A stretch of 58,331 nucleotides of DNA, from the NCBI GenBank assembly GCA_035502155.1, contig DATJUU010000118.1, forward strand, positions 1 through 58,331, written 5' to 3'. Each line of letters begins with the position of its first letter. Positions within the stretch are counted from its first letter, which is position 1. This DNA comes from Opitutaceae bacterium. Lineage in GTDB: Bacteria; Verrucomicrobiota; Verrucomicrobiia; Opitutales; Opitutaceae. The position numbers were made by a program, and so were the translations under genes. Below are positions 4,654 to 25,417 of this stretch, piece by piece. Below the pieces are notes generated by a model. It saw only the letters and a program-made list of their open reading frames with translations, did not search any database and was not told the origin of the DNA.

Positions 4654-7600
4654 CTAGAACATGAACCTGCTGGAGAGCTCGAACGTCTGGCCCATCTCGA
4701 TGCGCTGGTGCGCCGGGGTGCCGTCGGGCTCGACGCTGACGGGAACCAGGTGCGGCTTCTCACCGACGTTATGCACATTGAGCTGCAATCTCCAATCCAG
4801 CTTGGAACTCAGCTTCGTCTGATAACCGATCCACGCATCGACGTGCTCATCGATCTTTCCATAGAGCGGCTTGGTGACATCCGTGTACCAGAGGTCGTTG
4901 CCGAGCGCATCTTGGGTCTTGGAGGGCGCGTAACCGAGGATTGGCTTCGACGCCCAGCGAACGCCGCCACCCACGTTGAAGCCCTTCAAGGCACTGCTCT
5001 TGAAGCTGTAGTTCGTGATCGCCTTGAAGTTCCACACTGACAATTCCGGCTGCTGGCAGCCCTTCTGGGCACTCTGCAGCAGGTAGCCGGACCAGATGTT
5101 TTGCAGGAAAGTATTATCCATCGAACCCGACTTGCTCCAGGCGCCGCCCCAGAAACCCCAGAGCGGCAGGTCACCGGCCGGACCGCTAAAGAAGGCATTC
5201 TCAGCCTGAATGAAGGCGACTGTCGACGCGCCCAAGGCGGTCTGAACCGTGTTCACCTTGGAGGCATTGAACGTGAGGTCCCAGTTGCTGACCGGCCGCA
5301 CCGTGGCTTCGATTTCATAGCCCTTCGACTGGAGATCCTCGCTGATGATCGGGAACGATCCGTTGATCTTCCCGCTGCCCGTGTTGGCAATGTTCCACGG
5401 GAAGGTGATCGGGCTGGCGTTGGGCTGGTTGTACACATTGACCCAGTTGCCCGTCGTGATCGCGTTCACGTTGACGCCGAGGCCGTAGGCATCGAAGAAC
5501 GACTGCGGAAAGTATTTGGCGAAGTTGGCCTTCCAGTCGGCAACGGCAGCCACGATTATATTGTGCGTGGCTGTCTCGCTCCCGTAATTCGGGTAATTCG
5601 TGAAACCCCAGTCGTTGGGGGCGGCGGGGTACACGGCCAACTGCTGTCCAAACGCGGCCGCGTCGGCCGCGCCCCAAGCCGGCAGGAGGTACAGGTAGTA
5701 GCCATTGTTGCCGAGGGGATCTGCCGCACCCGAAGTCGCCGGAGCGTTCTTATCGATGGTCTTGAAGACCGTCAGCCGGACCGTGGCATGGCCGTTGAGG
5801 GTATCCACCTGGATGCCATAATCGTCGGTCTTGCCGGTTTCGGCGGGGAGCAGGCCGTCATCGAAATCATAGCGCACCTTTGGCGACTCATTATTGCCAT
5901 GGAAGTAGTAGGCACTCACGTCGGTGCCGAGCGGCAGAGTGCCGCGGATGGACTTCGGCAGGTGCAGGGTCAGGCCGTAGCTGTTTGAATTCGTGCGGAT
6001 CGTGGTGACCGGACCTGTGATCCCGTAGTTCATGCTCGCGACGTGGGTGTTGGGATCCAACGGGGCGTTGGAGGAACTTTGCTTGATCGTGTCCTGTCTC
6101 CAGCCGTACTCGGGGATGATCATATCGTCCCACAGGTGGCCCTGGTACATGAATGCCGCCGATTGCAGCACTTGCAGGGTCTGGTTGCCCGAAAAATACA
6201 GGTCATTGATGTCATCGTGCCAATTGAGCACGTTGACCGGCATGGTCGTCCAGCCGCGATAGTTGGCGAGATTGTTGGCCTGCGTGCTGGCACCATTTGC
6301 CGGATCCGTCCACGGGTCACCCGGATTCACGCCGGCGGGGGGGTTCCACGTGGCGTTGAAGTTCAGGATTGAGCCGCTCTGCGGCTGGAGGTAGTTGGCG
6401 ACATTGCTCAGGTTCAGCCCGGCGGGCGAAGTCGCGTTGACCATGCTGGGTCCGAGGTAAGACACCCAATCAACTCCGCGGTTGGCCGAAATGAGGCCCA
6501 GCGGATCGCCCATCGCGTTCGCAAAGGCCACATCCGTCGCATTTCCAGCCCAAGTCCGGTTCTCGATCCGGGTCCGATAATCGCCCACCAGCGCGGTGAT
6601 CGAGTGGTGGCCGAGAAACGACGCCAACGGGCTCTTGGGCGCGTAATCTTCGACCCGCAAATCCCAGTTGGCGGTGATCTGGTAGTTGTCGTGGATGTAA
6701 TGGGCGCTGTTGTCTCCGGAGCCGAAGTCACCCGCGACGAGGGGCCGTCCCTCATTCGGATTCTTTACAGCCAAGCCGGGAAACGAGTTCGGGGGATACA
6801 TGATGCTGTAGGCATCGAGATCGACGGTGATGAAGGGCTCGGTGTATCCCCACATCGACACCTGGCCCTGATCGAATTCCTGGTGGTCGACGATTCCCTG
6901 AAGCGAGACCCGGCCATTGAGGAGGCTCTCCTCGGCCGTGACGTTGAACGACTTCCAGTTCTGCCACTCCTGCTTGTTCGGGCCGTCAATCAGTTTGTTA
7001 TAGAAGTCGAAGATCGACGGATCCGTCAGCGACTTGTTGTTGTAGTAGATCGACCCGGCAAAGGCACCGACGTACTTACTGGGATCCCGGTTGTTGACGG
7101 TGATGGCGTAATTGGTGAAGCCCGAAATATACATCGGGGCCGCCTGGGGAAGGCTACCGACAGTACCGCCGGCCACGCTCTGAACACTGTTCAAGGTCGT
7201 CATGGACTGCAGCAAGGCCCCGGTCCTTCCATCGTACACAAACGCGGCATTGGGGCCGGGCCAAAGATAGTGATAATCCTGAGCGTTGACCCACGGCGAC
7301 AGGCCCGAGAAGGTACCGACGCCGCCGAGCTGCGAACCCGTGGGGTAGGAGAAGGGATCGTACCCCTTCTTGTTCACCACTCCGTCAAAGTAGCCCGAGA
7401 TGAAGTCCATCGGAGGCAACTCGCGGGGGTTGTTGGACCGCACCCGTCCGACCTCGGCATTGGCCTCGATCTTCATGTGACTGGCGGCCGTGTCCAAAGT
7501 CTTCGGATCGTAGCGCAGGGCCAGATAGGCGCGTTGCGAATGATTGAATGCCGGCTTCTGCTGGTACTGGGTGTCGTCATTCAGCACGTCGAGCCGCACC

Positions 7601-8328
7601 GCGAGTTGCTCGGGGATGAGCACCCGGTTATAATCCAAGGACTCCCGGGTGGTGCCGAAGCTGCCGAGCTTGGTCTCGATCGATCCCGTATCCTTGAAGA
7701 CCGCCTCGTTGGTGGAATAGTTCGAGATACCCGACGGGCTGCCGACCCCATAAAGGAATGAGTTCGGGCCGCGGGAGATGTCGACCCGGAAGATGTTGAA
7801 GGAATCCCACGGGATCTCGCTCCCGAAATAGTTCCGCGTGTTGTCCATGGGGCTGAGTCCGCGGGCCCGGTTGGTCCCGGTCGGATTCTGGAGCCGTCCG
7901 GCCTCGGCATTGCTGTTGACGCCGTTGCCCCGGAAGGCGACCCCCGAGTAGTTGCCGTACAGACCCGCGACCTCGTTGTTGGTCGTGTAGATAAAGAGGT
8001 CCTGCGCATTGGTGATGCCCACGTCGTCCATCAGCGATTTCGTAATGACTGACAAGGCGGACGGAGTGTCGACCAACTTGGTCGCCACGCGCGCGCCGCC
8101 GAGCGTATCCACCGCCCGGTAGCCCTCGGTCTCCGTCGTCACGGTGAAGGGATCCATCTTCACCACCTGCTCCTCTTCGGCGGCGGCCGGCGCTGCGGGC
8201 GGCGGGTTTGCCGCCGTCTGGCAGAGCGCCCGCGGCGTAATCACCAAAGCAAAAAGGGCAACGGCATACGACATGCCCGCCCGTGCAATACGGATGGTCT
8301 GGGCCTTGGGCCCGTTGTCACTGTTCAT
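4654..8328 (-). CDS. TonB-dependent outer-membrane receptor, paralog 1 (~1224 aa)
   Basis: Plug-domain motif DTLGGARVATKLVDTPSALSVITKSLMDDVGITNAQDLFIYTTNNEVAG. Long beta-barrel rich in N/Y/G/T. C-terminal aromatic residue (...FELSSRFMF). Start re-set to the ATG at 8328 (MNSDNGPKAQ...signal peptide...ALCQTA), which aligns with the paralog start MNTKHDPQER. Confidence 0.85.
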   Translation of the reverse strand: MNSDNGPKAQTIRIARAGMSYAVALFALVITPRALCQTAANPPPAAPAAAEEEQVVKMDPFTVTTETEGYRAVDTLGGARVATKLVDTPSALSVITKSLMDDVGITNAQDLFIYTTNNEVAGLYGNYSGVAFRGNGVNSNAEAGRLQNPTGTNRARGLSPMDNTRNYFGSEIPWDSFNIFRVDISRGPNSFLYGVGSPSGISNYSTNEAVFKDTGSIETKLGSFGTTRESLDYNRVLIPEQLAVRLDVLNDDTQYQQKPAFNHSQRAYLALRYDPKTLDTAASHMKIEANAEVGRVRSNNPRELPPMDFISGYFDGVVNKKGYDPFSYPTGSQLGGVGTFSGLSPWVNAQDYHYLWPGPNAAFVYDGRTGALLQSMTTLNSVQSVAGGTVGSLPQAAPMYISGFTNYAITVNNRDPSKYVGAFAGSIYYNNKSLTDPSIFDFYNKLIDGPNKQEWQNWKSFNVTAEESLLNGRVSLQGIVDHQEFDQGQVSMWGYTEPFITVDLDAYSIMYPPNSFPGLAVKNPNEGRPLVAGDFGSGDNSAHYIHDNYQITANWDLRVEDYAPKSPLASFLGHHSITALVGDYRTRIENRTWAGNATDVAFANAMGDPLGLISANRGVDWVSYLGPSMVNATSPAGLNLSNVANYLQPQSGSILNFNATWNPPAGVNPGDPWTDPANGASTQANNLANYRGWTTMPVNVLNWHDDINDLYFSGNQTLQVLQSAAFMYQGHLWDDMIIPEYGWRQDTIKQSSSNAPLDPNTHVASMNYGITGPVTTIRTNSNSYGLTLHLPKSIRGTLPLGTDVSAYYFHGNNESPKVRYDFDDGLLPAETGKTDDYGIQVDTLNGHATVRLTVFKTIDKNAPATSGAADPLGNNGYYLYLLPAWGAADAAAFGQQLAVYPAAPNDWGFTNYPNYGSETATHNIIVAAVADWKANFAKYFPQSFFDAYGLGVNVNAITTGNWVNVYNQPNASPITFPWNIANTGSGKINGSFPIISEDLQSKGYEIEATVRPVSNWDLTFNASKVNTVQTALGASTVAFIQAENAFFSGPAGDLPLWGFWGGAWSKSGSMDNTFLQNIWSGYLLQSAQKGCQQPELSVWNFKAITNYSFKSSALKGFNVGGGVRWASKPILGYAPSKTQDALGNDLWYTDVTKPLYGKIDEHVDAWIGYQTKLSSKLDWRLQLNVHNVGEKPHLVPVSVEPDGTPAHQRIEMGQTFELSSRFMF

Positions 8329-8513
8329 ACGTGTTAGTTGGAGTCTGGGTTGCGTGGCACCGCCCAAGAACGCCAAAACGCCCACGAGGGGTACCACAGA
8401 GGGGTACGAGAGGGCTGGAGGCACTCTCGTCATGAACTGGACTGCGCCCATTCGAGCGCTATCGGGAGGCCCCTTTCAATTCCCGGATGGGGTCTCCGCC
8501 GCTTTTTTCACGC

Positions 8514-8529
8514 ATTTAATGCATTAAAT
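8514..8529. promoter_or_regulatory. Perfect 16-bp palindrome ATTTAATGCATTAAAT (putative operator), copy 1
   Basis: Read directly from the sequence. It is embedded in a block of about 55 bp (TTCAATTCC.GGAT...CTTTTTTCAC..ATTTAATGCATTAAATGAA) that recurs at 12701-12749. It lies 186 nt upstream of the receptor-1 start. Confidence 0.6.
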
Positions 8530-8662
8530 GAACAGGACCGATTTAGCGTGAAACGTCGGCTCCGGGAGGGGTCCCCGCGCCCTGCCGCGCCGCAAGCGTG
8601 CTCCGGGGGCGCCCACCCGGCCGATCCGCCGGCGTCAGGCGGTCGCCGGGGTCATCGGTGCG

Positions 8663-8759: not shown

Positions 8760-11700
8760 TTAGAACATGAACTTGTTGGAGATCTCGAACGTCTGGCCCT
8801 CTTCGATGCGCATTTGCGCCCAGGAGCCGTCCGGCTCGACGCTGACCGGGACCAGATGCGCCTTCTCGGTGAGGTTCCGGATGTTCAGCTGGATCCGCCA
8901 ATCGACCTTGGAAGTCAGCTTGTGCTGATAACCGATCCAGAGATCGGCATGTTCATCAATCTTGCCGTAGAGCGGCTTGTTGACGTCCATGATCCACGAC
9001 TTGTTGCCGAGCGGGTCGGTGACCTGGCTGATGCCGTAGCCGAGGATCGGCTTCGACGCCCAGCGGACGCCGCCGCCCACATTGAAGCCCTTGAACCGGC
9101 CGTTCTTGAACGTGTAGTTCGTGACAGCCTTGAAATTCCACTGCCGCAACTCCGGCTGGGCGGTGCCCGTCTGGGCGGTCTGGAGCTGATAGGCGGACCA
9201 GATGTTCTGAATGAAGTAATCGTAGACCCGGCCGCCCACCGCGTTGGTGCCGCCCCAGAGAGGCATCTGGCCCGCCGGGGAGCTGAAGAACGCGTATTCC
9301 TGCTGGATGAAGGCGGAGTCCGCCGCGCCCAGCGCGGTCTGGACGGCATTCACCTTCGAGGCATTGAAGGTGAGATCCCAGTTGCTGACCGGCCGCACCG
9401 TGGCCTCGAGCTCATAGCCCTTCGACTCGATGTCCTGACTGATGATGGGGAATGAGCCGTTGATCTTGCCGCCGCCGGTGTTGGAGACCACCCACGGGTA
9501 TGGGAAGGCGGCCGGATTGTTGAAGACGTTGGCCCAGTTCCCCGCCGTGACCGCGGCCACATTGACGCCGAGACCGTAGGCATCAAAGAAGGACTGCGGG
9601 AAGTACTTGGCGAAATTCTGCTGGAGCGAGGCGACGGCCGCCTTTTCCGCCACGGTTTGGGATGAATTCAGGAAGGCCGAGGACGAGTAATCGCCGTAGC
9701 CGACGCCGGACACGCCGGCGTTGTTCGCCCAGTTCCAGAACCAGGAGCTGCCGGTCTGGTCCTGCCCGGCCAGGCCGATGGCGTTGGAGGCCGCGTCGCC
9801 GGCAATCCACGCCGGCAGGAGATACAGATAATAACCGTTGTTCCCCAGGGGATCCGCCGCCCCCGAACCCGCCTGACCGTTCTTGTCGAGGGTCTTGAAG
9901 TAGGTGAGCCGCAGCGTGGCGTGGCCGTTCAGGGTGTCCACCTGGATGCCGTAATCGTCCGTCCGGCCCGTTTCGGCGGGCAGCAGGCTGGCATCGAACG
10001 CATAGCGCACCTTCGGCGTCTCGTTGTTGCCCCGGAAATAATAGGCGCTCACGTCCGTGCCCAGCGGCAGTTTGCCGCGGATCGACTTCGGCAGGTGCAG
10101 GGTCAGGCCCCAACTCGTCGAATTCGTGCTGAATTTGGTGTCACTGCCCGAAATCCCATAATTCATGCTGGCGACCTGGGTGTTGGGATCGAGCGGCGCG
10201 TTGGAGGACCGCTGCGTGATCGTGTCCCGCCGCCAGCCCCACTCGGGGATGATGATGTCGTCCCAGAGGTGCCCCTGGTACATGAGGGCGGCCGACTTCA
10301 GGGTCTGCTCGGTCTTGTTGCCCGAGGTATACAGATCATTGATGTTGTCGTGCCAGTTGAGCATGTTGACCGGCGTGGTCGTCCAGCCCTTGTAGTTGGC
10401 GGGATTGTCGGACTGGGTCTCGGTGCCCGTTCGATACGGGGATGGGTTGGCCCACGGATCGGAGGGATTCACCCCGGTGGCGGTCCACGTGTTGCTGAAG
10501 TAGCTGGTGGTGCCGCTGGTCGGCGCGACCAGGTTGGCGATGTTCCCGAGGCTCAGCCCGGAGGGGGACGACACGCCGGCCAGGCTGGGCCCGAGGTAGG
10601 CCACCCAGTCCGGCACGCGGTTGCCCGAGATGCTGCCGGTTCCGGAGCCCATCAGCTGGGCAAACGTCGTGTCCGTCGCATACGTGTCCCAATGCCGGTC
10701 TTCCTCCTGGGTCCGGTATTCGCTGCCCAAGGCCGTGAACGAGTGGTGGCCGAGAAACTCCGTCAGCGGGCTCTTGGCCAGGAAATCGTCGAAGCGCAGA
10801 TCTCCGTTGGCCGTCAGCTGGTAGTTGTCGTGGATGTACTTGGTGCTGCCGGCTCCCGAGCCAAAGTCGCTCGCGGCAAACGGCCGGCCCTCATTCGGGT
10901 TGGTCACGGCCAGTCCCGGCAGCCAAGAGGGGTACTTGATCTGGTAGGCATCCAGATCGACCGAGATGAAGGGTTCGGTGTAGCCAAAGATGGACACCGA
11001 GCCTTCATCGAACTCCTGGTGATCCACCACGCCCTGAATCGCGATCCGTCCATTGAGGAGCGTTTCCTCCATCGTGACGTTGAACGCATTCCAGTTCTGC
11101 CATTCCTGCTTGTTCGGGCCGTCGATCAGGCTGTCGTAGAAATTGAAGATCGACGGGTCCGTCAGCGACTTGTCGTTGTACGTCACAGTCCCGGCATAGG
11201 CTCCAGGGAACAGGTTGGAATTGCGGTAGTTGACGGTCTTGGCGTAGTTGGCAAAGCCCGAGACGTAGAGCGGGGCCGCCTGGGGGAAGCCGCCGATGCC
11301 GAGGCCATTGGCGCCCACCGCGCCGTTGAAGGTCGTCGAGGACTGCAACAGGGCACCGGTCTTGGCATCGTACACATACGCCGCATTGGGACCGGGCCAG
11401 AGATAGTGATAATCCTGGGCGTTGACCCACGGGTTCAGGGACGGGGCCGCGGGGGCTGCACCCGAGCCCGAGAAGGAACCGGCCCCGACGAGCTGCTGGT
11501 TCGTGTTGTAGAGGAACGGATCGTAACCGCCCTTGTTCAGGCCACCGCCGGAGAAATAGCCTGTGATGAAGTCCATCGGCGGCAGCTCGCGGGGGTTGTT
11601 GGAACGCACCTGTCCGCTCTCGGCGTTGAGCTTGATGGAGAAATGGCTGGAGTCCGTGCTCAGGGCCTTCGGGTCATAGCGCAGGGCCCCATAGGCGCGC

Positions 11701-12548
11701 TTGGCATGATTGAACGCCGGCTGCTGCCGGTACTGGGTGTCGTCATTCAACAGGTCGACCCGGATCGCCAGTTCTCCCGGCACGATCGATCGGTTGAGAT
11801 CCAAGGATTCGCGGGTGCTGCCGAAGCTGCCGTAGCGGGCCTCGACCGTGCCTTGGTTCTTGTCGATGATCGCCTCGTTGGTCGAATAATTCGCGATGCC
11901 CGACGGGCTGCCGACGCCGAACAGGAAGGAATTCGGGCCGCGGGAGATGTCGACCCGGCTGATGTTGAAGGAATCCCAGGGAATCTCGCTCGAGAAATAG
12001 TTCCGCGTGTTGTCCATCGGCGTGAGCCCGCGCGCCCGGTTGATGGAATTCGGATTCAGGAGCCGCGCGGCCTCCGCGTTGCTGCTGACGCCGATGCCCC
12101 GGGAGGCGACCCCCGAGAAATTGCCGTTCAGGCCCGCGACCTCGGTGTCGGTCGTGTAGATCAGGAGTTCCTGCGCATTGGTGATCCCCAGGTCGTCCAG
12201 GAAGGACTTGGTGATGACCGACAAAGCCGAGGGCGTGTCGACCAGCTTGGTCGCGACGCGCGCGCCGCCGAGTGTGTCCACCGCCTGGTAGCCCTCCGTT
12301 TCCGCCGTCACGGTGAAGGGATTCATGTGGACCACCTGTTCTTGCGATTCCGCCGCAGGGGTCGCGACCGGAGCCTGAGCCGGCGTACTCGTCTGATCCG
12401 CCGTGGCGCTTGGCGCTGGAGCGGCCTGGCCGAGCACTCTCGGACCAATCGCACTGGCAAAAAGGGCGGCTGCGCAGAACGCACCCGCCCCACGGAGACG
12501 GCACGGCAGGATATGCCGCCGCTCTTGTGGGTCATGCTTGGTGTTCAT
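8760..12548 (-). CDS. TonB-dependent outer-membrane receptor, paralog 2 (~1262 aa)
   Basis: Collinear with paralog 1 along its whole length, with the same plug motif (DTLGGARVATKLVDTPSALSVITKSFLDDLGITNAQELLIYTTDTEVAG) and the same C-terminus (FEISNKFMF). ATG at 12548 followed by a signal peptide. Confidence 0.85.
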   Translation of the reverse strand: MNTKHDPQERRHILPCRLRGAGAFCAAALFASAIGPRVLGQAAPAPSATADQTSTPAQAPVATPAAESQEQVVHMNPFTVTAETEGYQAVDTLGGARVATKLVDTPSALSVITKSFLDDLGITNAQELLIYTTDTEVAGLNGNFSGVASRGIGVSSNAEAARLLNPNSINRARGLTPMDNTRNYFSSEIPWDSFNISRVDISRGPNSFLFGVGSPSGIANYSTNEAIIDKNQGTVEARYGSFGSTRESLDLNRSIVPGELAIRVDLLNDDTQYRQQPAFNHAKRAYGALRYDPKALSTDSSHFSIKLNAESGQVRSNNPRELPPMDFITGYFSGGGLNKGGYDPFLYNTNQQLVGAGSFSGSGAAPAAPSLNPWVNAQDYHYLWPGPNAAYVYDAKTGALLQSSTTFNGAVGANGLGIGGFPQAAPLYVSGFANYAKTVNYRNSNLFPGAYAGTVTYNDKSLTDPSIFNFYDSLIDGPNKQEWQNWNAFNVTMEETLLNGRIAIQGVVDHQEFDEGSVSIFGYTEPFISVDLDAYQIKYPSWLPGLAVTNPNEGRPFAASDFGSGAGSTKYIHDNYQLTANGDLRFDDFLAKSPLTEFLGHHSFTALGSEYRTQEEDRHWDTYATDTTFAQLMGSGTGSISGNRVPDWVAYLGPSLAGVSSPSGLSLGNIANLVAPTSGTTSYFSNTWTATGVNPSDPWANPSPYRTGTETQSDNPANYKGWTTTPVNMLNWHDNINDLYTSGNKTEQTLKSAALMYQGHLWDDIIIPEWGWRRDTITQRSSNAPLDPNTQVASMNYGISGSDTKFSTNSTSWGLTLHLPKSIRGKLPLGTDVSAYYFRGNNETPKVRYAFDASLLPAETGRTDDYGIQVDTLNGHATLRLTYFKTLDKNGQAGSGAADPLGNNGYYLYLLPAWIAGDAASNAIGLAGQDQTGSSWFWNWANNAGVSGVGYGDYSSSAFLNSSQTVAEKAAVASLQQNFAKYFPQSFFDAYGLGVNVAAVTAGNWANVFNNPAAFPYPWVVSNTGGGKINGSFPIISQDIESKGYELEATVRPVSNWDLTFNASKVNAVQTALGAADSAFIQQEYAFFSSPAGQMPLWGGTNAVGGRVYDYFIQNIWSAYQLQTAQTGTAQPELRQWNFKAVTNYTFKNGRFKGFNVGGGVRWASKPILGYGISQVTDPLGNKSWIMDVNKPLYGKIDEHADLWIGYQHKLTSKVDWRIQLNIRNLTEKAHLVPVSVEPDGSWAQMRIEEGQTFEISNKFMF

Positions 12549-12729
12549 ACTAGTTTTGGAGTCTTGGTTCGGAGCGAAACCATTCGGGGTTGCCTGGTGT
12601 CTCAAACTAAGATGAGACGCTCACTGGATTAGCCCACAGGCTCGAAAACAACGGCTAACGGCACGATTGGTGGATCGTCGCCGATGCGGCTTCAATTCCG
12701 GGATTGCCATCGGAGCCCTTTTTTCACCG

Positions 12730-12745
12730 ATTTAATGCATTAAAT
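12730..12745. promoter_or_regulatory. Perfect 16-bp palindrome ATTTAATGCATTAAAT (putative operator), copy 2
   Basis: Identical to 8514-8529. It lies 182 nt upstream of the receptor-2 start. Its last two bases are the A and T of the ATG (12744) of the divergent regulator gene. Confidence 0.6.
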
Positions 12746-14585
12746 GAAGACGGCCTCCCGCCAACGGCCGGTTGACCTCGCGCTCAGCGGCTACGAGCGA
12801 TTACTCCGCGACCAGCAGGGCCGGACGTCGGCCGTCTTTCCCTCCGAGCTGGAACTCGCCCTGCGCTGGGGCGTCAGCCAGTCGGCGGTCAACCGGGCCG
12901 CCCAGCGCCTGATCGCCGCCGGCCGGTTGCGCCGCCAGGGCTACAAATTGATGCCGGCCGCGGCCAACACCGAGGCCGGATCACTGACGGGCGCGCGCCT
13001 GGTGGTTATCACCCACCCGACCGCCCGGCTCACCACCTTGCCGGAGGAGGCGACCCGGCGGGGCGTCACGGTCGAGGAGATCTTCTGCAACGGGCGGGAC
13101 ATCTTCCGCCACAATCTGCGCCTGGCCGCACAGGACCGGGTCGACGGGGTCATCTTCCGCCTCCTGGGCGAAAGCGGATGGGAATGGGACAACGAGGTGG
13201 CGGAATTCGACCGCCTGCGGATCCCCTATGTCGTGTGCGAGGAGGCGCCGCCCGGCCACAACCTGGTGACCGAGGATTTGCAGGGCGCCACCGCCAGCCT
13301 CGTGGCGCACCTCAGCAGCCTCGGCCACACCAACATGGTGTACCTCGGGTCGCTGCGCCTGGGCGACCGCTCCACCGCCATCCGGCAGGCCTACGAGGGC
13401 GCTTGTCTGCGGCTGGGCATGCAGGATTCCGCGCGGCAGAAGCAGGAACTCAGCGCCCACACGCGCGAGATCATCCGTCTGTCCCTGCGACGGATCCGGC
13501 TGCAATATCCCGCCGCCACCGCCTTGGTGCTCTTCGACGCCTACCAGGTCGAACCGTTCCTCGCCGCCGCCAAGGAGGAGCAGATCGCCATCCCCCGCGA
13601 CCTTTCGCTGGTCTGCGTGGGCGACTCCCCCGTGGCGCGCAACAGCCAGCCCTCAGTGACCTGCGCCGGCTTCGACACCCGCACCCTGGGGCACACCGCC
13701 CTGGATCTGCTCTGCCAGAACATGCTGGAAATCCGGCGCACCGGCCGGCTCCTGCCCCGACAACGGCTGCGCCTCGAGGCCACGCTGCGCCTGCGCGCCT
13801 CCGTCGCCCCCCGCACCACCCCCAGCCCCGCCGCCGAACCCGGGATCCCGCCGGGACGGTCCTCCTCGCGCCGCTGGCCGCAGGCCCGCGACCAGCGCCT
13901 GCGCGAGGCCGAGGAGAGCTGGCAGCAGCCACACCGGCTCGCCGCCGGCGCCCGCCCGGGATCCTTGGCGCCGCTCGATCTCAGCGGCCTGGCCAACCGC
14001 TCCCTCTCCCACCAGAACGGCTGGCTCGGACACCTGCCGCTGCTGCATTTCGGCCCCGGACGCAAATCCATCCACGGCGTGACGTTTGATGTCCTCGACG
14101 AGCACCAAAACCACGGCAAGGGCGCGATCGTGCTCCGCTCGAACCGCTCCCTCTCCACCGCCGGACGTGTCCTCCCCGTCGAGATCGCCGTGCCGGTCCG
14201 CCGGCGGGTGCGGGCGGTGTATTTCCTGCACGCCTGCGGCTACGCCGGCGAACCCATGCCCTTCGCGTGGTACGACTTCTACCTCGCCGGCCGGCGCCCG
14301 ATCTCGGTGCCGCTCGTCGCCCGGGGCCTGGGCGACCTGCCCGCCGGCGCCCCGCCGCCTAACATCCAGGACTGGTGGCCGGACTTTCCGCAGTTCAACG
14401 GCGTCGGCGTGCGCCACCTGGTGATCACCGAAAACGGCGACCCGTTCGACTACGAGCGCTACCTCTACACGCTCGAGTGGGCGAATCCGTTTCCCGAGGC
14501 CGAGCTGACGACGCTGTACATCCGCTCCAACCCCGCGCTCGAGACCACCCTCGCCCTGCTCGCCCTCACCCTGCTGGTCGACTAG
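12744..14585 (+). CDS. Hybrid transcriptional regulator: GntR-type wHTH, LacI/PBP1-type sugar-sensor domain and an unassigned ~200-aa C-terminal domain
   Basis: N-terminus FPSELELALRWGVSQSAVNRAAQRLIAAGRLRRQGYKL is a GntR wHTH. Residues ~85-350 look like a periplasmic-binding-protein type I sensor (HTNMVYLG..., IPRDLSLVCVGDSP). A Pro-rich linker follows. The extra domain starts near LAPLDLSGLANRSL (about nt 13960). Confidence 0.75.
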   Translation: MKTASRQRPVDLALSGYERLLRDQQGRTSAVFPSELELALRWGVSQSAVNRAAQRLIAAGRLRRQGYKLMPAAANTEAGSLTGARLVVITHPTARLTTLPEEATRRGVTVEEIFCNGRDIFRHNLRLAAQDRVDGVIFRLLGESGWEWDNEVAEFDRLRIPYVVCEEAPPGHNLVTEDLQGATASLVAHLSSLGHTNMVYLGSLRLGDRSTAIRQAYEGACLRLGMQDSARQKQELSAHTREIIRLSLRRIRLQYPAATALVLFDAYQVEPFLAAAKEEQIAIPRDLSLVCVGDSPVARNSQPSVTCAGFDTRTLGHTALDLLCQNMLEIRRTGRLLPRQRLRLEATLRLRASVAPRTTPSPAAEPGIPPGRSSSRRWPQARDQRLREAEESWQQPHRLAAGARPGSLAPLDLSGLANRSLSHQNGWLGHLPLLHFGPGRKSIHGVTFDVLDEHQNHGKGAIVLRSNRSLSTAGRVLPVEIAVPVRRRVRAVYFLHACGYAGEPMPFAWYDFYLAGRRPISVPLVARGLGDLPAGAPPPNIQDWWPDFPQFNGVGVRHLVITENGDPFDYERYLYTLEWANPFPEAELTTLYIRSNPALETTLALLALTLLVD

Positions 14586-15682
14586 GGGGACGGCACCATC
14601 CGCGGCGTGGCCGCGGGCGCGCCGACTGACGCCCGCCACACCAGCTCGGTCGGGAACACGATCGTTTCCTGCGCCGTCGGCGCGCCCTGGCTGTGGTGGT
14701 GATGGAGGCGGGCCAGCAGGGCCTCCACCGCCCGGCTGCCCATGGCGTGCAGCGGCTGCCGGACGGTCGTCAGTTGCGGTACCGTGGTCCGGGCCACCAG
14801 CGTGTCGTCAAACCCGGCCAGTGAGACATCCTCCGGCACCCGGAAGCCGACCTCCGCCAGCGCCTCAAGGCAGCCGATGGCGCAGGCGTCGTTGCCGCAG
14901 AAGACCGCCTGCGGCAGCGTCTGGCCCGCGGACCGGTCCAGCCAGCCGTGCATCGCCCGCCGGCCCTCGTCCACGGTGTAGCCGGCGTCCACCAGCAGCG
15001 AGGGTTCAAACGGGATCCGGGCCGCGCCGAGCGCGCGCTTGTACCCCTGGATGCGCCGTTCGGCGCCGAGCAGGCCGCGATTGCCGGTGAGGTGCAGGAT
15101 CCGGCGGTGGCCCCGGGAAATCAGGTGGCGCACCATCTCGAAGGCGCCGGTGGTCTCATCGCTCTCCAGGTTCACCGAGCCCGGAATCGGCACGTTGGAG
15201 TGCAGCGCCACGAACGGCGTGTGGTCCGGCAGCGCCCGCACGGCCTCGGGCGACAGGACCGGGGCGATGAGGATCAGGCCGTCGATGCGGCCGTCGCACA
15301 GCCCGGGCAGCCGGGCGGAATCGCGCTCCCAGTCCGAGAGCGTGAAGACCGAGGTGTTCTGCCGGTGGCGGGTGGCCGCCTCCAGGATCCCGTTGAACAC
15401 CTCGAGGAAATAATGGTTCAGGGCGCCGCCAATATCGACGACGGTCGCCACGCCCAGCGTGTGCATCCGGCGTTCCGCCAGCGCGCGCGCGGCCGCATTC
15501 GGCCGGTAACGCAGCCGCGCCGCCGCCGCGAGAATGCGCGCCCGCGTCCCGGCCGCGATCCGCGAGGACGAGCGCGCGCCGTTGAGCACCACCGAGGCCG
15601 CCATGGCCGAGACGCCGGCGGCGCGACCCACGTCCGCGAGGGTGGCGGCGCGCACGGGTTTCTTTTTCCGGGAACGGGGCAT
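14582..15682 (-). CDS. LacI-family transcriptional regulator
   Basis: ATG at 15682. HTH ATLADVGRAAGVSAMAASVVLNG...RILAAAARLRYRPNAAARALA, followed by a PBP1 sensor domain. It lies 8 nt downstream of yicI on the same strand. Confidence 0.85.
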   Translation of the reverse strand: MPRSRKKKPVRAATLADVGRAAGVSAMAASVVLNGARSSSRIAAGTRARILAAAARLRYRPNAAARALAERRMHTLGVATVVDIGGALNHYFLEVFNGILEAATRHRQNTSVFTLSDWERDSARLPGLCDGRIDGLILIAPVLSPEAVRALPDHTPFVALHSNVPIPGSVNLESDETTGAFEMVRHLISRGHRRILHLTGNRGLLGAERRIQGYKRALGAARIPFEPSLLVDAGYTVDEGRRAMHGWLDRSAGQTLPQAVFCGNDACAIGCLEALAEVGFRVPEDVSLAGFDDTLVARTTVPQLTTVRQPLHAMGSRAVEALLARLHHHHSQGAPTAQETIVFPTELVWRASVGAPAATPRMVPSP

Positions 15683-15690
15683 GGCGCACC

Positions 15691-18030
15691 TCAGGAGGCG
15701 GGCGCGAGCGTGACGCGCAGCCGCCGGACGCCGCGGGCCGGCGTGATCTCCACGCCCAGCGGCTGCTTCTCCGCGGTGCCGCCTTCAACCGCGGCGACGC
15801 GCGACACGCCGGCCAGCTGGAGTTTCCAAGGCCGGCCGGCCGCCGCCGGGCTGAGCCGGGCCTCGAGCACCCGCCGCTCGCGGCGCACCGCCAGGCGGAT
15901 CCCCGCGCCGCCCCGCAGAGTCGGCACGCGGCACACCGCCTCGGCGCCGTCCGCGAGTTCGTACACGCGGAAGGTCGTGCCGGCGGTGAAATCGTAGTCG
16001 GGGCGGTCCTCCACCGCGCCGACCGGCAGGATCGTCCCCGGCCGCACAAACAGCGGCAGGCTGAGAAAGCCGTGCTGCGCCCGGCGCCAGCAGCCGCCCG
16101 TCTCGACCTCCCCGGTGAGCAGATGCGTCCACCGCCCCTCGGGCAGGTAGTAGTTCACGGTCCCCTCCGCGGTGAACACCGGCGCCACCAGCAGCGAGTC
16201 ACCCAGCATGTACTGCCGGTCGAGCGTGTCGGCGGCGGGTTCGTCCGGAAACTCAAGCACCATGGCGCGCATCAGCGGGAGCCCCTCCTCGTGGGCGGTC
16301 ACCGCCTGTCCGTACAGGTAGGGCATGAGCCGGCACTTGAGCCGGGTGAAAAGCCGCAGCACGTCGCAGGCCTCCTCGTCGTAGTTCCACGGGACGCGGT
16401 AGGACGACGAGCCGTGAAGCCGGCTGTGCGAGGACAGGAGGCCGAAGGCCACCCAGCGCTTGTACACCGCCGCCGGCGCCTGACCCTCAAAGCCGCCGAT
16501 GTCGTGGCTCCAGAAGCCGAACCCGCAGAGCCCGAGCGACAGCCCGCCCCGCAGCGATTCCGCCATCGACTCGAACGTCGACCAGCAGTCGCCGCCCCAG
16601 TGCACCGGGAAACGCTGGCCGGAGGCGTAGGCCGAGCGGGCGAACACCACCGCCTCGCCCCGGCCCCGGGCCCGCTCCAGCAGCCGGAAGACGCACGCGT
16701 TGTACAGCACCGGATAGAAATTGTGCATGCCCGCCGGGTCCGAGCCGTCGTGATAGACGGCGTCCTCCACCGGGATGCGCTCGCCGAAGTCGGTCTTGAA
16801 ACAATCCACGCCCATCGCCAACAGCCGCCGCAGGTGGCCGGCAAACCACCGGGCCGCCGCGGGATTGGTGAAATCGACGATCGCCATGCCCGGCTGCCAC
16901 AGGTCGGTCTGCCACACGTCGCCGTTGGTCCGGCGGACGAAGTAGCCGCGCGCCCGGCCCTCGGCGAACAGCCGCGAGCGCTGGCTGACGTACGGGTTGA
17001 TCCACACGCAGATCCGGACGCCGAGCCGGTGCAGGCGCTTCAGCATGCCGGCCGGATCGCGGAAGACGCGCGGATCCCACTCGAAGTCGCACCAGTTGAA
17101 CGCGCGCATCCAGAAGCAGTCGAAGTGAAACACGTGCAGCGGGAGCCGGCGCGCCCGCATGCCCTCGATGAAACGGGTGCAGGTTTTCTCGTCGTAGTCG
17201 GTCGTGAACGACGTGCTCAGCCACAGGCCGAACGACCAGGCCGGGGGGAGCGCCGGCCGCCCCGTCAGCCGGGTGAGCCGGCGGAGCACCTCCTTCGGTG
17301 TCGGGCCGTGGATGACAAAATAGTCGAGCCGTTCGCCCGGCACGCTGAACTGCACGCGAGAGACCCGCTCCGACGCCACCTCGAACGACACCGGGCCGGT
17401 GGTGTCCACGAGCACGCCGTAGCCGCGGTTCGTGAGGTAGAAGGGCACGGACTTGTACGCCTGCTCGCTGCCCGTGCCGCCGTCCCGGTTCTCATTCTCC
17501 ACCACCTGGCCGTTCTTCACGAACGCGGTGAAGCGCTCGCCCAGCCCGTAGACGCACTCGCCCACGCCGAGGTGGAGGCGCTCGTGCACGAACGCGGTCC
17601 CGTCGGCATGCTGCACGTACCCGATCCCGCGCCCGGCGGTCCGCGTCAGCAGCCGGCCCCCGGCCTTGAACGCGAGCTCCCATCCGTCCTTGCTCACGTG
17701 CACAGCCAGCCGCCCCGCGTGCAGCACGGCTTCCTGACGGCCGTTCTCGATCGTGACCCTTGGCGGCGGCGGCGGCGGCAGCGGAATCCCCGGCTTCCGG
17801 TCGGTTCCGCCGCTGAAATGCTCGATGCTGACATGGATCACGTCCTCCGCGGGCGCGGTCAGCCGGATGGTCAGCAGGGGCCCGCCCAGCGTGTCGCCGC
17901 GGTGGCGCACCGGGCGCGTCGTCGCGTGGACCGTCAACGTGTCGCCGTCGGCGGTCACCTCATGCACCTGTATGGGGTAGTGAGCCGAAATTCCCGGCTG
18001 CATCAGCCATTCACCGTCGCTGAACTTCAT
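15691..18030 (-). CDS. yicI: Alpha-xylosidase, glycoside hydrolase family 31
   Basis: Near end-to-end similarity to my recollection of E. coli YicI. Matching stretches include MKFSDGEWLMQPG, LGVGECVYGLGERFTAFVKNGQ, GRPALPPAWSFGLWLSTSFTTDYDE, VDCFKTDFGERIP, FPVHWGGDC and GFGFWSHDIGGFE. Confidence 0.93.
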   Translation of the reverse strand: MKFSDGEWLMQPGISAHYPIQVHEVTADGDTLTVHATTRPVRHRGDTLGGPLLTIRLTAPAEDVIHVSIEHFSGGTDRKPGIPLPPPPPPRVTIENGRQEAVLHAGRLAVHVSKDGWELAFKAGGRLLTRTAGRGIGYVQHADGTAFVHERLHLGVGECVYGLGERFTAFVKNGQVVENENRDGGTGSEQAYKSVPFYLTNRGYGVLVDTTGPVSFEVASERVSRVQFSVPGERLDYFVIHGPTPKEVLRRLTRLTGRPALPPAWSFGLWLSTSFTTDYDEKTCTRFIEGMRARRLPLHVFHFDCFWMRAFNWCDFEWDPRVFRDPAGMLKRLHRLGVRICVWINPYVSQRSRLFAEGRARGYFVRRTNGDVWQTDLWQPGMAIVDFTNPAAARWFAGHLRRLLAMGVDCFKTDFGERIPVEDAVYHDGSDPAGMHNFYPVLYNACVFRLLERARGRGEAVVFARSAYASGQRFPVHWGGDCWSTFESMAESLRGGLSLGLCGFGFWSHDIGGFEGQAPAAVYKRWVAFGLLSSHSRLHGSSSYRVPWNYDEEACDVLRLFTRLKCRLMPYLYGQAVTAHEEGLPLMRAMVLEFPDEPAADTLDRQYMLGDSLLVAPVFTAEGTVNYYLPEGRWTHLLTGEVETGGCWRRAQHGFLSLPLFVRPGTILPVGAVEDRPDYDFTAGTTFRVYELADGAEAVCRVPTLRGGAGIRLAVRRERRVLEARLSPAAAGRPWKLQLAGVSRVAAVEGGTAEKQPLGVEITPARGVRRLRVTLAPAS

Positions 18031-24800: not shown

Positions 24801-25201
24801 ACGTCGACCGGCATGAAGGTTGAGGGCCGGTGGTGCTGGGGCCAGTTGAACTCGATCCCGCCGCTGATCCACGGCCCCGCCAGGCCGACCAGCGCCGGTT
24901 TGATCACCGCCTGGTAATAGAGCAGGTCGTAGCCGTTGGTCTTGTCAGTGATCCGGTGGATGCGCCCGCCCAGCTCCGGCAGGATCATCACGCGCAGGAA
25001 TTCGTTTTCCAGCCACACCGCGTCCCACCGCCGCGGCACCGGTTTTTCCGCGATCCGGTCCGTGAACGGCAGCGGGTAGACGCTCCCGCTCGAGCCCTGG
25101 TAGACCCGTTTTTCCAGGAACATCGGATTCCGGTCCGGAGCGCACGGTTCGTAGGTCGGCAGGACGACGGCGGCGCGGCGCACGGAGACGGGGGCGGGCA
25201 T
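21827..25201 (-). CDS. DUF5107-like N-terminal domain + TPR-repeat protein (1124 aa), function unknown
   Basis: ATG at 25201. The N-terminus (YPLPFTDRI...WLENEFLRVMILPELGGRIHRITDKTNGYDLLYYQAVIKPALVGLAGPWISGGIEFNWPQHHRP) matches my recollection of the DUF5107 family. The C-terminal half consists of TPR-like Ala/Arg/Leu-rich repeats. Confidence 0.7.
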   Translation of the reverse strand: MPAPVSVRRAAVVLPTYEPCAPDRNPMFLEKRVYQGSSGSVYPLPFTDRIAEKPVPRRWDAVWLENEFLRVMILPELGGRIHRITDKTNGYDLLYYQAVIKPALVGLAGPWISGGIEFNWPQHHRPSTFMPVDVAVERHPGGAATVWLSEHDPLARLKGMHGACLHPGRAYLELKVRAYNRTADVQTFLWWANAATRVHEQYQSFFPPDVYYVADHAKRAMSAYPRCAGRYYGVDYAARGRAGVPAGEKPRRFVPPHCDPELKTQNPKLPSYRADDLSWYANIPVPTSYMCMGSREDFFGGYDHAAQAGIIHVADHRIAPGKKQWTWGNHAFGYAWDRNLTDADARGVHWPYIELMAGVYTDNQPDFSFLQPGETKHWSQYWYPIRAIGPAQHATLDAAVSLRLAAGTARVGVAVTAPQRRAVVRLEIRGRPVARWTRDLTPDRPLVAGARMPRGGRAADLTLRVLAAGGRELIRYQPRPPPHGPVPPPAGEPPAPEATADADELYLTGLHLEQYRHATRAPEAYWREALRRDPGDARCNLALGRWHLRRGEWADAERHLRASIARLTARNPNPAEGETFYQLGRCLRHQGRDAEAGEAFAKATWNQAWQAAGYHALAEIDCGRGDWTAALDHLERALAVNAGNLRARDLQGIVLRRLGRGAEADARLAATLALDPLDWWARHLRGAALTCDTQVRLDLALDCARAGLVAEALDILDGAKPEPPSGTAPLVGYYCGWLLERQGKAGAARRARAAAAKAPPDYCFPARLEEIAVLETAIAADPRDARAPFYLGNLLYARRRHQEAIACWERAVRLEPANAVAWRNLGIGYFNIQRRPARARTAYERAFRADPADARLLFERDQLWKRLGVAPARRRRELERHRPLVETRDDLSVELCALYNQTGRPARAREILARRRFQPWEGGEGQALGQHTRAHLLLGRAALRRGDAAGARKWFEAALAAPENLGEARHLLANQSDVHFWLGEAGAAAGDLRSARVHWTAAATFRGDFQEMSVRTFSEQTYFSALAWRRLGRTARARRLLRGLLGHARRLARTPARIDYFATSLPTMLLFDDDLPARRITTALVLEAQARLGLGQRTAAQRLLARILRRDPSHALAADLAADR

Positions 25202-25341: not shown

Positions 25342-25417
25342 GTCCCTGTAGCTCAACAGGATAGAGCAGCGGTTTCCTAAACCGCCGATCCCGGTTCAAG
25401 TCCGGGCGGGGATACCA
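25342..25417 (+). tRNA. tRNA-Arg (anticodon CCT)
   Basis: Manual cloverleaf, 76 nt with encoded CCA. Acceptor GTCCCTG/CGGGGAT with two G.U pairs. D-arm GCTC-AACAGGATA-GAGC. Anticodon arm GCGGT-TTCCTAA-ACCGC. 4-nt variable loop. T-arm CCCGG-TTCAAGT-CCGGG. Discriminator A. Confidence 0.88.

Follow-up and report, generated by a model that had tools for sequence, protein, structure and literature searches.

A conserved, unnamed all-β domain at the C terminus of an AraR-type regulator family of Verrucomicrobiota

Opitutaceae and other Verrucomicrobiota rank among the main degraders of polysaccharides in soils, peat, freshwater, oceans and guts, and we know of essentially no study of how their TonB-receptor and CAZyme loci are regulated. 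The window analysed here, a 58,331-nt stretch of DNA from an Opitutaceae bacterium of soil or water, contains a gene whose product was predicted to join a GntR-type helix-turn-helix (HTH) and a LacI-type sensor to a C-terminal segment of no recognizable family. What is this segment, and what might it do on a transcriptional regulator?

A single reading frame encodes a three-module regulator

The open reading frame (ORF) is as originally described, and its translation contains all of the peptide stretches quoted in that description. Its codon-position GC content (0.71/0.50/0.91) resembles that of the neighbouring genes, and the ORF is conserved in L002–L031 and P0176–P0218. The 613-amino-acid protein has four parts: a GntR-type winged helix, a LacI/GalR-type sensor (Peripla_BP_3), a variable linker of around 23 residues and a C-terminal unit of around 235 residues. 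We labelled this last unit X; it comprises a pre-X segment (amino acids 378–408) and an all-β domain (amino acids 409–613).

12744–14585, plus strand: complete ORF of 613 amino acids with an ATG start (third-position GC 0.91)
12744–12968, plus strand: GntR-type winged HTH (wHTH) DNA-binding domain, amino acids 1–75, by weak Pfam GntR/MarR_2 matches, homologues and family profile
12981–13805, plus strand: LacI/GalR-type effector sensor of the periplasmic-binding-protein (PBP) fold, amino acids ~80–354, by Peripla_BP_3, NCBIfam and PDB chains
13806–13874, plus strand: variable Pro/Ser/Arg-rich linker, amino acids 355–377
13875–13967, plus strand: conserved pre-X segment (W..R-rich..W..P), amino acids 378–408, belonging to the X unit
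13968–14582, plus strand: domain X, all-β, unnamed family, amino acids 409–613, running to the C terminus of the protein, by AlphaFold (AF2) and profile search

Pfam, the family profile and AlphaFold agree with the anatomy first proposed, namely a GntR-type HTH, a LacI-type sensor, a flexible linker and an unassigned β-rich globular domain. Such an ORF could instead reflect a sequencing frameshift that merges two genes, or carry a disordered or decaying tail, and the gene is indeed split into two calls on two related contigs (P0001 in L001 and P0178 in L086). On these contigs, however, the TonB-dependent receptor (TBDR) and GH31 genes are fragmented too, and the L001 copy has +1, +6 and −2 indels relative to the window, pointing to assembly errors. 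P0001 as a stand-alone X and P0178 as a truncated form were accordingly rejected as frameshift artefacts of error-prone assemblies. Elsewhere the junction lies in frame within a single three-module ORF in more than 20 orthologous loci and in around 40 to around 80 sequence clusters, and X is both the most conserved module and confidently folded (pLDDT 96). The in-frame conservation, the conservation of X, the folded model and the indels of the split copies refute an artefact, to which we assign practically no probability.

The two-module hybrids of 370–400 residues that had been expected in Opitutaceae did not appear among relatives of the N-terminal 377 residues. Down to 39% identity, all of these are around 604–635 residues long and carry X, save for short partial or truncated calls (P0178, 412 residues; P0190, 448 residues, partial; P0189, 574 residues). 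Nor is the three-module architecture unusual, as had been supposed: with 79 of the 147 best representatives, it prevails in a large Verrucomicrobial family of regulators, and X sits at the C terminus of LacI- and AraC-type regulators too. Literature searches found no earlier account of three-module regulators of this kind in Verrucomicrobia. We show that the product of 12744–14585 is a cytoplasmic one-component regulator whose first two modules form an AraR-type chimera, followed by a tether and the unit of around 235 residues.

The DNA-binding domain is of the GntR/AraR type

Within the window protein, residues 27–65 match Pfam GntR (PF00392; 16.5 bits) and MarR_2 (19.3 bits) weakly, under the 27-bit cut-offs, and the homologues P0017 (29.8 bits) and P0133 (27.8 bits) score above the GntR cut-off. 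A profile of the wHTH family built from 20 sequences matched GntR-family DNA-binding domains in the PDB at E values of 1.5e-8 to 1e-5, with the N-terminal domain of AraR (4egy; E = 1.8e-7) among the top matches. By profile comparison, the winged helix is clearly of the GntR type at the family level. Pfam searches of the window protein gave no match to the LacI-type HTH (PF00356) at E ≤ 1, and PF00356 matched the product of the adjacent gene (14582–15682) at 9e-10. Public records name related proteins "LacI family transcriptional regulator" or "substrate-binding domain-containing protein". As judged from these matches, the DNA-binding domain is GntR/AraR-type and not LacI-type, which corrects the database label (LacI family).

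The sensor is identified by Peripla_BP_3 at amino acids 187–354 (E = 2e-21), and also by LacI-family NCBIfam equivalogs and LacI-family PDB chains aligned over amino acids 99–355. Its end, at around residue 354 (nucleotide 13805), agrees with the predicted position near nucleotide 13800. As in the AraR subfamily, a LacI/GalR-type effector domain follows a GntR DNA-binding domain; that subfamily has two modules and ends with the sensor, whereas here 259 residues extend beyond it, around 235 of them conserved and folded. The linker (amino acids 355–377) is the least conserved of all segments, with 17% mean identity across orthologues and paralogues. It does follow the sensor as predicted, but its C-terminal boundary had been placed around 30 residues too late, as conservation returns at W378 (nucleotide 13875).

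X is an all-β domain outside the curated families

An AlphaFold (AF2) model of X built from a 44-sequence alignment is all-β and of high confidence (pLDDT 96.2, pTM 0.92), covering the domain without the pre-X segment (amino acids 378–408); an earlier model from 11 sequences was poor (pLDDT 64.7) and was replaced. Conservation among orthologues is 56% identity in the pre-X segment, and its W378 and W394/P397 positions recur in secreted proteins joining a β-helix to X and in PHP proteins with X. The original prediction had named three findings that would overturn it: a disordered C terminus, a known Pfam domain and a frameshift fusion. The model excludes the first and the in-frame junctions the last.

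As for the second, nothing significant was found in Pfam or NCBIfam with X alone, with the whole protein or with 44 family members; NCBIfam returned no families, the best Pfam trace was DUF7182 at E = 0.2, and no Pfam family was common to more than two of the 44. The X profile matched PDB sequences only through a spurious hit to eL38 (0.017). Foldseek searches of the model against PDB and BFVD returned no match at E ≤ 1e-3 and no neighbour with TM above 0.35. The weak matches (E = 2e-3 to 9e-2) were to Cry toxin domain III, to carbohydrate-binding modules (CBM4, 16, 22 and 29) and to jelly-roll lyases, and TM to the CBM/Cry-type matches was 0.29–0.33 when normalized by query and at most 0.46 when normalized by target. 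Because no structural neighbour exceeds TM 0.35, a CBM-like label for X is weak, and with no Foldseek match at E ≤ 1e-3 we assign X to no CBM or lyase family. On the strength of these sequence and fold searches and the model, X is an unnamed family, absent from curated domain libraries, with a predicted fold that has no solved relative.

X is shared by regulators and secreted proteins and is unusually uniform

A profile search for X recovered 1034 representatives of clusters at 50% identity, mainly from Verrucomicrobiota and Planctomycetota. X always lies at the extreme C terminus, with a tail of at most 24 residues in 135 representatives. Hosts among the 147 best representatives include GntR+PBP regulators (79), β-helix proteins (24), AraC-type (8) and LacI-type (5) regulators, and around four fifths of the classified members in this set are transcription factors. 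Further hosts are PAP-like and PHP proteins. Secreted hosts bear signal peptides or lipoboxes, and their genes adjoin sulfatase genes; the β-helix hosts are pectate-lyase-like and lie in sulfatase loci, and regulator paralogues with X occur within polysaccharide-degradation loci. A few genuine fusions of a LacI HTH with X exist (L076, P0111), and P0063 combines an anti-sigma-like transmembrane segment, FecR, a β-helix and X. The domain survey that had been proposed at the outset thus places X on carbohydrate-active-looking β-helix proteins as well, and only rarely on its own, P0028 being an apparently genuine stand-alone copy. No other ORF in the window bears X.

Among orthologues, X is 65% identical, compared with 61% for the wHTH and 55% for the sensor; among paralogues the values are 52%, 48% and 33%. 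Within single genomes, the comparison among paralogues gives 57–60% for X against 37–41%. Across 118 X domains from all hosts, 28 positions are at least 80% conserved, of which 14 are polar or aromatic (three W, two Y, two H, two R, two N, one Q, one S and D543, the last at 100%), half of them in loops; Q, D, W, H and Y residues are around 97–100% invariant across sequences that are only around 30% identical. That X exceeds the sugar sensor in conservation among paralogues and keeps the same near-invariant residues in all host classes weighs against a second substrate-specific pocket and in favour of a role that all members of the family share.

An invariant D543 with near-invariant Q542, H496, Y575 and R572 could also mark an active site. 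X would then be a small catalytic jelly-roll, lyase- or hydrolase-like, converting an imported oligosaccharide to or away from the true inducer and acting as a second catalytic module on secreted proteins. The H/Y/Q/R inventory is reminiscent of β-jelly-roll polysaccharide lyases, the weak Foldseek matches include the ulvan lyase PL28 and a GH16 kappa-carrageenase, and the hosts and the products of adjacent genes are active on carbohydrates or phosphoesters. Those structural matches are poor, however (TM 0.26–0.32, root-mean-square deviation 17–19 Å), X resembles none of the CAZy-type Pfam families in sequence, transcription factors are an unlikely main home for an enzyme, and one and the same putative active site would need to suit very different substrates from locus to locus. 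We consider catalysis quite improbable.

A candidate operator lies upstream of two TonB-dependent receptor genes

Around the regulator gene, the window contains the following features.

4654–8451, minus strand: TBDR1, TonB-dependent receptor 1, 1265 amino acids, a tandem paralogue 66% identical to TBDR2; presumed regulon member
8514–8529, no strand: second, identical palindrome ATTTAATGCATTAAAT, 63 bp upstream of the start codon of TBDR1; blocks flanking the two copies are shared
8760–12605, minus strand: TBDR2, TonB-dependent receptor 2, 1281 amino acids (Plug domain), divergent to the regulator; presumed regulon member
12730–12745, no strand: perfect palindrome ATTTAATGCATTAAAT of 16 bp, overlapping the ATG and lying in the divergent promoter region common to TBDR2 and the regulator; candidate operator
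14582–15682, minus strand: classical LacI-family regulator (LacI HTH and Peripla_BP_1/3), convergent with the three-module gene; last gene of a GH31–LacI operon
15691–18030, minus strand: GH31 glycoside hydrolase, conserved neighbour

A TBDR2-type gene is the conserved upstream neighbour in L002, L003, L005 and L009. As a family-wide rule, adjacency to a TonB receptor was rejected: it holds for close orthologues only and is absent in distant paralogues. The convergent LacI gene, joined to the three-module gene by a CTAG stop-codon overlap, is kept in most of L002–L032, with the 4-nt overlap in L002–L007 and L009; distant paralogues lack a LacI neighbour.

The two copies of ATTTAATGCATTAAAT in the window compare with none expected. 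It is identical in L001–L006, L009 and L086 and has one mismatch in L017 and L018, and no match was found in L010–L016 or L019–L031, so that its presence in only some orthologous loci counts against this part of our explanation. The orthologous loci fetched, some of them from genomes with a single TBDR, showed no second copy, and the one-TBDR genomes have only one copy in the stretch fetched. No sigma-70 consensus emerged from a scan around the two palindromes.

Alternatively, the neighbouring LacI protein could be what binds the palindrome, whose core AATGCATT does not have the GT..AC signature of GntR operators. Related ATTTGT..ACAAAT palindromes, however, lie upstream of paralogues that have no LacI neighbour. 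One such site, ATTTGTTTAAACAAAT, fits the AraR operator consensus ATTTGTACGTACAAAT (PMC1950556) at 12 of 16 positions; ATTTAATGCATTAAAT shares only the outer ATTT/AAAT arms with that consensus, and the ATTTGTTTAAACAAAT sites fit it better. Because nothing convincing was found as a separate LacI-type operator upstream of GH31, assigning the palindrome to the three-module protein rests on this paralogue evidence. We regard ATTTAATGCATTAAAT as the likely, candidate operator of the three-module regulator.

Possible roles of X

We favour, with a probability of roughly 0.45, an AraR-type repressor of TonB-receptor genes in which X binds a family-common ligand as a second input. The protein would sit as a dimer on ATTTAATGCATTAAAT, both at its own start codon facing TBDR2 and at the second copy upstream of TBDR1, and would repress itself and the two receptor genes until an imported sugar or oligosaccharide fills the LacI-type pocket. 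Less certain than this operator step, X would be a ligand-binding β-sandwich whose site, assuming that the residues cluster, would comprise N418, R419, W427, H444, H496, Y510, Q542, D543, W544, R572, Y575, W579 and N581. Since these residues are identical in all paralogues and host classes, the ligand would be common to the family, most likely a carbohydrate or anionic sugar derivative, and X would give each locus-specific repressor a shared input beside its own specific sugar pocket. On the secreted β-helix, PAP-like and PHP enzymes it would serve as a binding or targeting module.

Ligand binding is supported by the carbohydrate-related hosts and by fold matches that are weak but thematically consistent. 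X is modelled as all-β and occurs on β-helix proteins in sulfatase loci, whereas its CBM fold matches are weak (TM ≤ 0.33) and its hosts mostly transcription factors. Counting against ligand binding, carbohydrate-binding modules normally diversify with substrate and X is unusually uniform; CBM-like modules are also rare on cytoplasmic transcription factors.

The main rival, which we judge rather unlikely, is that X is a higher-order oligomerization module that joins sensor dimers into a tetramer or bridges regulators, allowing cooperative or looping repression, and multimerizes secreted enzymes. Its models are the C-terminal tetramerization helix of LacI and AraR, for which operator cooperativity is documented (PMC1950556). 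The extreme C-terminal position on a variable linker, the presence on three regulator families (AraR-like, LacI and AraC) that classically use looping or cooperativity, the two identical palindromes in the window, conservation that is family-wide and not substrate-specific, and the rarity of stand-alone copies all fit such a module. By contrast, the many same-genome paralogues with 57–60% identity in X and the same invariant residues would form promiscuous hetero-oligomers, which evolution usually avoids; an interface would less typically keep Q, D, W, H and Y so nearly invariant than would a ligand or catalytic site; and the one-TBDR orthologous genomes have a single palindrome copy in the stretch fetched.

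X might also dock a protein partner in the cytoplasm, for instance a global co-regulator, a transporter domain or the LacI protein encoded next to it, giving common protein-mediated control as in CcpA–HPr or Mlc–PtsG. Family-wide conservation above that of the specific sensor and the conserved convergent pairing with the LacI gene in orthologues would suit this, but the same residues are conserved in secreted and lipoprotein hosts out of reach of such a partner, and the LacI neighbour is missing from distant paralogues, making docking very improbable.

A broader proposal, which we consider unlikely, is that X is a family-wide signal-integration module of Verrucomicrobiota and Planctomycetota through which all bearers, whether AraR-like, LacI or AraC, read the same second signal. 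Candidates for this signal are an anionic sugar metabolite that would reflect global carbon status, and contact between regulators carrying X. If so, X would be a built-in catabolite-control or substrate-prioritization device for polysaccharide utilization loci, doing the job of HPr/CcpA or cAMP/CRP in model bacteria.

No curated library names the domain that is most strongly conserved in this expanded regulator family, and defining the family corrects an annotation, replacing a LacI-type by a GntR/AraR-type DNA-binding domain. With 1034 clusters at 50% identity and a high-confidence model, X is a concrete target for structural and biochemical work, and the candidate operator ATTTAATGCATTAAAT upstream of two TonB-dependent receptors offers a testable regulon. 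X is common to three unrelated regulator families and to secreted enzymes, and if it proves a common second input, it would reveal a phylum-specific logic for polysaccharide prioritization.

Comparison with known systems

Bacillus subtilis AraR, like the window protein, joins an N-terminal GntR winged helix to a C-terminal GalR/LacI-type effector domain (PMC1950556). The likeness extends to a 16-bp palindromic operator with ATTT...AAAT arms, which in the window is a candidate site, and to the placing of operators both at the gene of the regulator itself and at genes for sugar uptake, for which the window has candidate sites. AraR has no third unit, whereas the window protein adds around 235 residues (pre-X and X). 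The operator cores differ (AATGCATT in the candidate operator, GTACGTAC in AraR), as do the phyla (Verrucomicrobiota and Firmicutes), and the presumed targets in the window are TonB-dependent receptors.

The LacI/GalR repressors (LacI, PurR and CcpA), under whose label NCBI and JGI records file this protein family, have the same sensor fold (Peripla_BP_3), but the window protein lacks their LacI-type HTH. Its addition after the sensor occupies the position of the LacI tetramerization helix, as a β module of 235 residues compared with a helix of around 18.

RsgI-type anti-sigma factors of Clostridium thermocellum carry C-terminal CBM or PA14 sensor modules (PMC6852018, PMC10328401) and provide a precedent for reusing enzyme-type β-sandwich carbohydrate-binding modules at the C terminus of a regulator as polysaccharide sensors; the layout of P0063 is analogous. 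RsgI sensors are extracytoplasmic and signal via proteolysis, whereas the window protein is a soluble, cytoplasmic protein predicted to bind DNA, and X is unrelated in sequence to CBM3, CBM42 and PA14. CBM4, 16, 22 and 29 and Cry-toxin domain III, which gave the best, if weak, matches in Foldseek, are likewise all-β and appended to carbohydrate-active enzymes. Compared with them, X is larger (around 205 residues plus pre-X), is strictly C-terminal, shares no sequence similarity and has far more uniform conserved residues.

A GntR-type winged helix and a LacI-type sensor precede a third module

The regulator gene is the open reading frame described in the original prediction, made by eye; all of the quoted peptides were found in its translation, and its codon-position GC (0.71/0.50/0.91) resembles that of surrounding genes (window GC 69.5%).

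12744–14585, + strand: three-module regulator, ATG start, 613 aa

Pfam assigned aa 187–354 to Peripla_BP_3 (E = 2e-21), and NCBIfam and PDB sequence searches aligned LacI-family sensors to approximately aa 100–355. At the N terminus, aa 27–65 gave weak GntR and MarR_2 matches under the curated Pfam cut-offs, with no LacI-type HTH detected in the protein by the same scan. Two homologues, P0017 and P0133, score above the Pfam GntR threshold. When the N terminus was searched as a 20-sequence profile, PDB entries for GntR-family DNA-binding domains were matched at 1.5e-8 to 1e-5, the AraR N-terminal domain (4egy) being among the top four (1.8e-7). Judged at family level, profile similarity thus places the winged helix in the GntR type; because it is joined to a LacI-type sensor without a LacI-type HTH, modules 1 and 2 are an AraR-type chimera. 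Relatives are labelled 'LacI family' regulators in NCBI and JGI records, a systematic mis-annotation of the family that this assignment corrects.

Module X is a predicted all-beta domain of no known family

The originally drawn module boundaries needed only a small correction: the variable tether is confined to aa 355–377 (17% identity), conservation restarts at W378, and the 'pre-X' segment at aa 378–408 is common to other host proteins of the C-terminal unit that follows, X (aa 409–613). AlphaFold2 modelled aa 401–613 from a 44-sequence alignment as an all-beta structure with 11 strands of at least three residues (pLDDT 96.2, pTM 0.92); an earlier model from 11 sequences only was poor. No match was found in Pfam-A (2025) or NCBIfam 20.0, whether the query was X alone or each of 44 members in turn, and a profile search of PDB sequences returned nothing meaningful. 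Our literature search found no published description of X, which is unnamed in public annotation and clearly qualifies as a candidate new domain family.

The three modules stay in one unbroken frame in about 40 database clusters and at over 20 orthologous genome loci, and proteins related to the first 377 aa, at identities as low as 39%, are all about 604–635 aa long, barring short partial or truncated calls. All three grounds for refutation named in the original prediction (disorder, a known Pfam domain, a frameshift fusion) are thus contradicted, and we give an artefact as the origin of this ORF practically no chance.

Foldseek searches of the X model against PDB and BFVD gave no match at E≤1e-3. 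Weak matches, all with query-normalised TM-scores ≤0.35, included viral capsid and tail-fibre jelly rolls and jelly-roll lyases and glycosidases, with CBM4/16/22/29 and Cry-toxin domain III likewise resembling X only weakly. These matches are compatible with a divergent jelly-roll-like sandwich and support no known fold family; that X is itself a catalytic jelly roll, as the lyases and glycosidases among them are, seems improbable.

X is widespread in Verrucomicrobiota and crosses host classes

A word-indexed search recovered just 10 relatives. When 1.84 billion cluster representatives were searched exhaustively with a profile, 1,034 were recovered at E≤1e-3, of which 362 reached E≤1e-10 and 171 reached E≤1e-30. 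X ends at most 24 residues from the C terminus in 135 full-coverage representatives.

Hosts among the 147 best representatives
GntR + sensor + X: 79
Right-handed beta-helix/DUF1565 + X: 24
AraC (cupin + HTH_18) + X: 8
LacI-HTH + X: 5
Unclassified, mainly fragments: 31

The three-module design, originally thought unusual, is therefore not a one-off; it is the standard form in a large Verrucomicrobial family. The proposed survey of X elsewhere also turned up the beta-helix/DUF1565 fusions and an intact-neighboured stand-alone copy (P0028, 218 aa). One beta-helix host, P0063, combines an anti-sigma-like TM segment, FecR, beta-helix and X, and the unclassified representatives include one purple-acid-phosphatase (PAP)-like and several PHP-domain proteins. 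Those beta-helix, PAP and PHP hosts that were checked have signal peptides or lipoboxes. X closes the PHP-domain and PAP-like phosphoesterases P0169 (6001–7008 of locus L082, within a GH127/GHL6/GHL15 cluster), P0101 (lipobox), P0132, P0140 and P0069 (PAP-like, signal peptide), so the enzymes that X accompanies are phosphoester-active in some cases and glycan-active in others.

Members from reference genomes come mainly from Verrucomicrobiota (Opitutaceae, Rariglobus, Nibricoccus, Chthoniobacterales/'Spartobacteria', Methylacidiphilales), with some in Planctomycetota and two in MAGs labelled Anaerolineales. The nearest relatives of the window protein, from Opitutaceae MAGs, are 87% and 81% identical in X, which makes an Opitutaceae origin of the window most likely. 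X domains cluster by host type, secreted hosts forming one sub-clade (38–43% identity), and identity across host classes is approximately 30%. Several paralogues occur per genome and even per contig; the 47-kb Opitutaceae MAG contig JBAZSJ010000040.1 has four X-bearing regulator genes (L045, L054, L057 and L061), so that three-module paralogues are clustered locally there.

Two split versions of the regulator gene were found, P0001 in L001 (ENA ERZ25039480) and P0178 in L086 (ENA ERZ25039540). Relative to the window, the L001 copy carries +1/+6/−2 indels, which point to assembly error. Most large genes of both contigs (TonB receptor, GH31, regulator) are likewise cut into several calls, pointing to indel-rich assemblies that create false 'stand-alone X' and 'truncated regulator' database proteins.

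X is the most conserved module of the regulator

Identity by module (orthologues; 28 paralogues; same-genome paralogues)
X: 65%; 52%; 57–60%
wHTH: 61%; 48%; 42–55%
Sensor: 55%; 33%; 37–41% (three multi-paralogue genomes)
Linker: 17%; 17%; 13–22%

X is the best conserved module among orthologues and paralogues alike. Conservation reaches at least 80% at 28 positions across 118 X domains drawn from every host class; 14 of these positions are polar or aromatic (N418, R419, W427, H444, S466, H496, Y510, Q542, D543, W544, R572, Y575, W579 and N581; D543 at 100%), and seven of the 14 fall in predicted loops. The specific sensor diverges and X does not, which speaks against a second substrate-specific pocket. 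Conserved motifs are common to regulators and secreted proteins; retention of the same residues by secreted hosts argues against a cytoplasm-only partner, and makes a cytoplasmic docking domain most improbable.

The conservation fits a common-ligand site, and a common interface less well. A strict C-terminal placement on a flexible tether would suit a higher-order oligomerisation module, as would the tendency of the three X-bearing regulator families to looping or cooperative action, but many near-identical paralogous X domains in one cell speak against it, and we consider it somewhat unlikely. We favour, at a probability of roughly 45%, a ligand-binding beta-sandwich that would give the whole regulator family a second input through its bound ligand and would serve secreted enzymes as a module for binding or targeting. 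A carbohydrate or an anionic sugar derivative is the probable ligand, to judge from the residue inventory (His, Arg, Trp, Tyr, Gln, Asp and Asn) and from the sulfatases and phosphoesterases that occur with X.

A conserved palindrome marks a candidate operator

The regulator gene is divergent from a TonB-dependent receptor gene with a tandem paralogue beyond it, and the window holds exactly two copies of a perfect 16-bp palindrome, ATTTAATGCATTAAAT, versus 0 copies expected by chance.

8760–12605, − strand: TonB-dependent receptor TBDR2, 1,281 aa
4654–8451, − strand: tandem paralogue TBDR1, 1,265 aa, 66% identical to TBDR2
12730–12745: ATTTAATGCATTAAAT, overlapping the regulator ATG and facing TBDR2
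8514–8529: ATTTAATGCATTAAAT, 63 bp upstream of TBDR1

Both receptors are unusually long, Plug being their sole Pfam match and no Pfam model recognising the barrel part. The regions 8452–8560 and 12668–12776 have flanking blocks in common (TTCAATTCC-GGAT, about 14 nt, then CTTTTTTCAC-NN-palindrome-GAA); duplication of the receptor gene seems to have taken a promoter/operator cassette with it. L001 and L086, unlike the window, have one receptor only. The palindrome is identical in L001–L006, L009 and L086, with one mismatch in L017 and L018.

Downstream, a classical LacI-family gene, the last of a GH31–LacI operon, converges on the regulator with a 4-nt overlap at 14582–14585 (CTAG, TAG on each strand) and no terminator between the two, which leaves room for transcriptional interference. 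This neighbour is kept in most of L002–L032; the closest orthologues (L002–L007 and L009) also keep the overlap. It is a formal alternative owner of the palindrome. Where a distant paralogue lacks the LacI neighbour, related palindromes can still be seen upstream of the paralogue's own gene (ATTTGTTTAAACAAAT in L046 and L047, AATTGTGGCCACAAAT in L035); together with the AraR operator consensus, ATTTGTACGTACAAAT (PMC1950556), these tie the candidate operator to the AraR-like DNA-binding domain on sequence grounds. AT-rich 16-bp palindromes precede 12 of 67 family genes versus 1.8% of background windows.

Beyond the operon lie an MFS sugar transporter, GH53, a GlcNAc-2-epimerase-like gene and, adjoining these within the sugar-utilisation cluster, a DUF5107–TPR protein (21827–25201, − strand, 1,124 aa). 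Elsewhere in the window, an 1,811-aa ORF (27294–32729, − strand) consists almost wholly of teneurin-NHL-like NHL/beta-propeller repeats (13 NHL stretches), and tRNA-Arg (CCT; 25342–25417, + strand) is the sole RNA gene detected by Rfam and ARAGORN. Around the paralogues and the beta-helix + X genes lie pectate-lyase-like proteins, sulfatases, MFS_2 transporters, ExbBD and DUF1559/pseudopilin-like genes, neighbourhoods of polysaccharide breakdown. An unlikely reading is that polysaccharide-utilisation regulators have in X a global-input or coupling device specific to the phylum.

Anatomy, family distribution, constraint on X and conserved operator-like palindromes are established by these results. 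In the model that we infer, the window protein would repress its own gene and the TonB-receptor genes in the manner of AraR, with repression lifted by a sugar in the LacI-type pocket. X is accompanied by an operator and a regulon that can be put to the test.

Comparison with AraR

Fusion of a GntR DNA-binding domain to a LacI-type sensor is documented in B. subtilis AraR (PMC1950556), whose chimeric two-module design matches the first two modules of the window protein. The window protein differs from this chimera in its extension, the unnamed, structurally unplaced and widely distributed module X.
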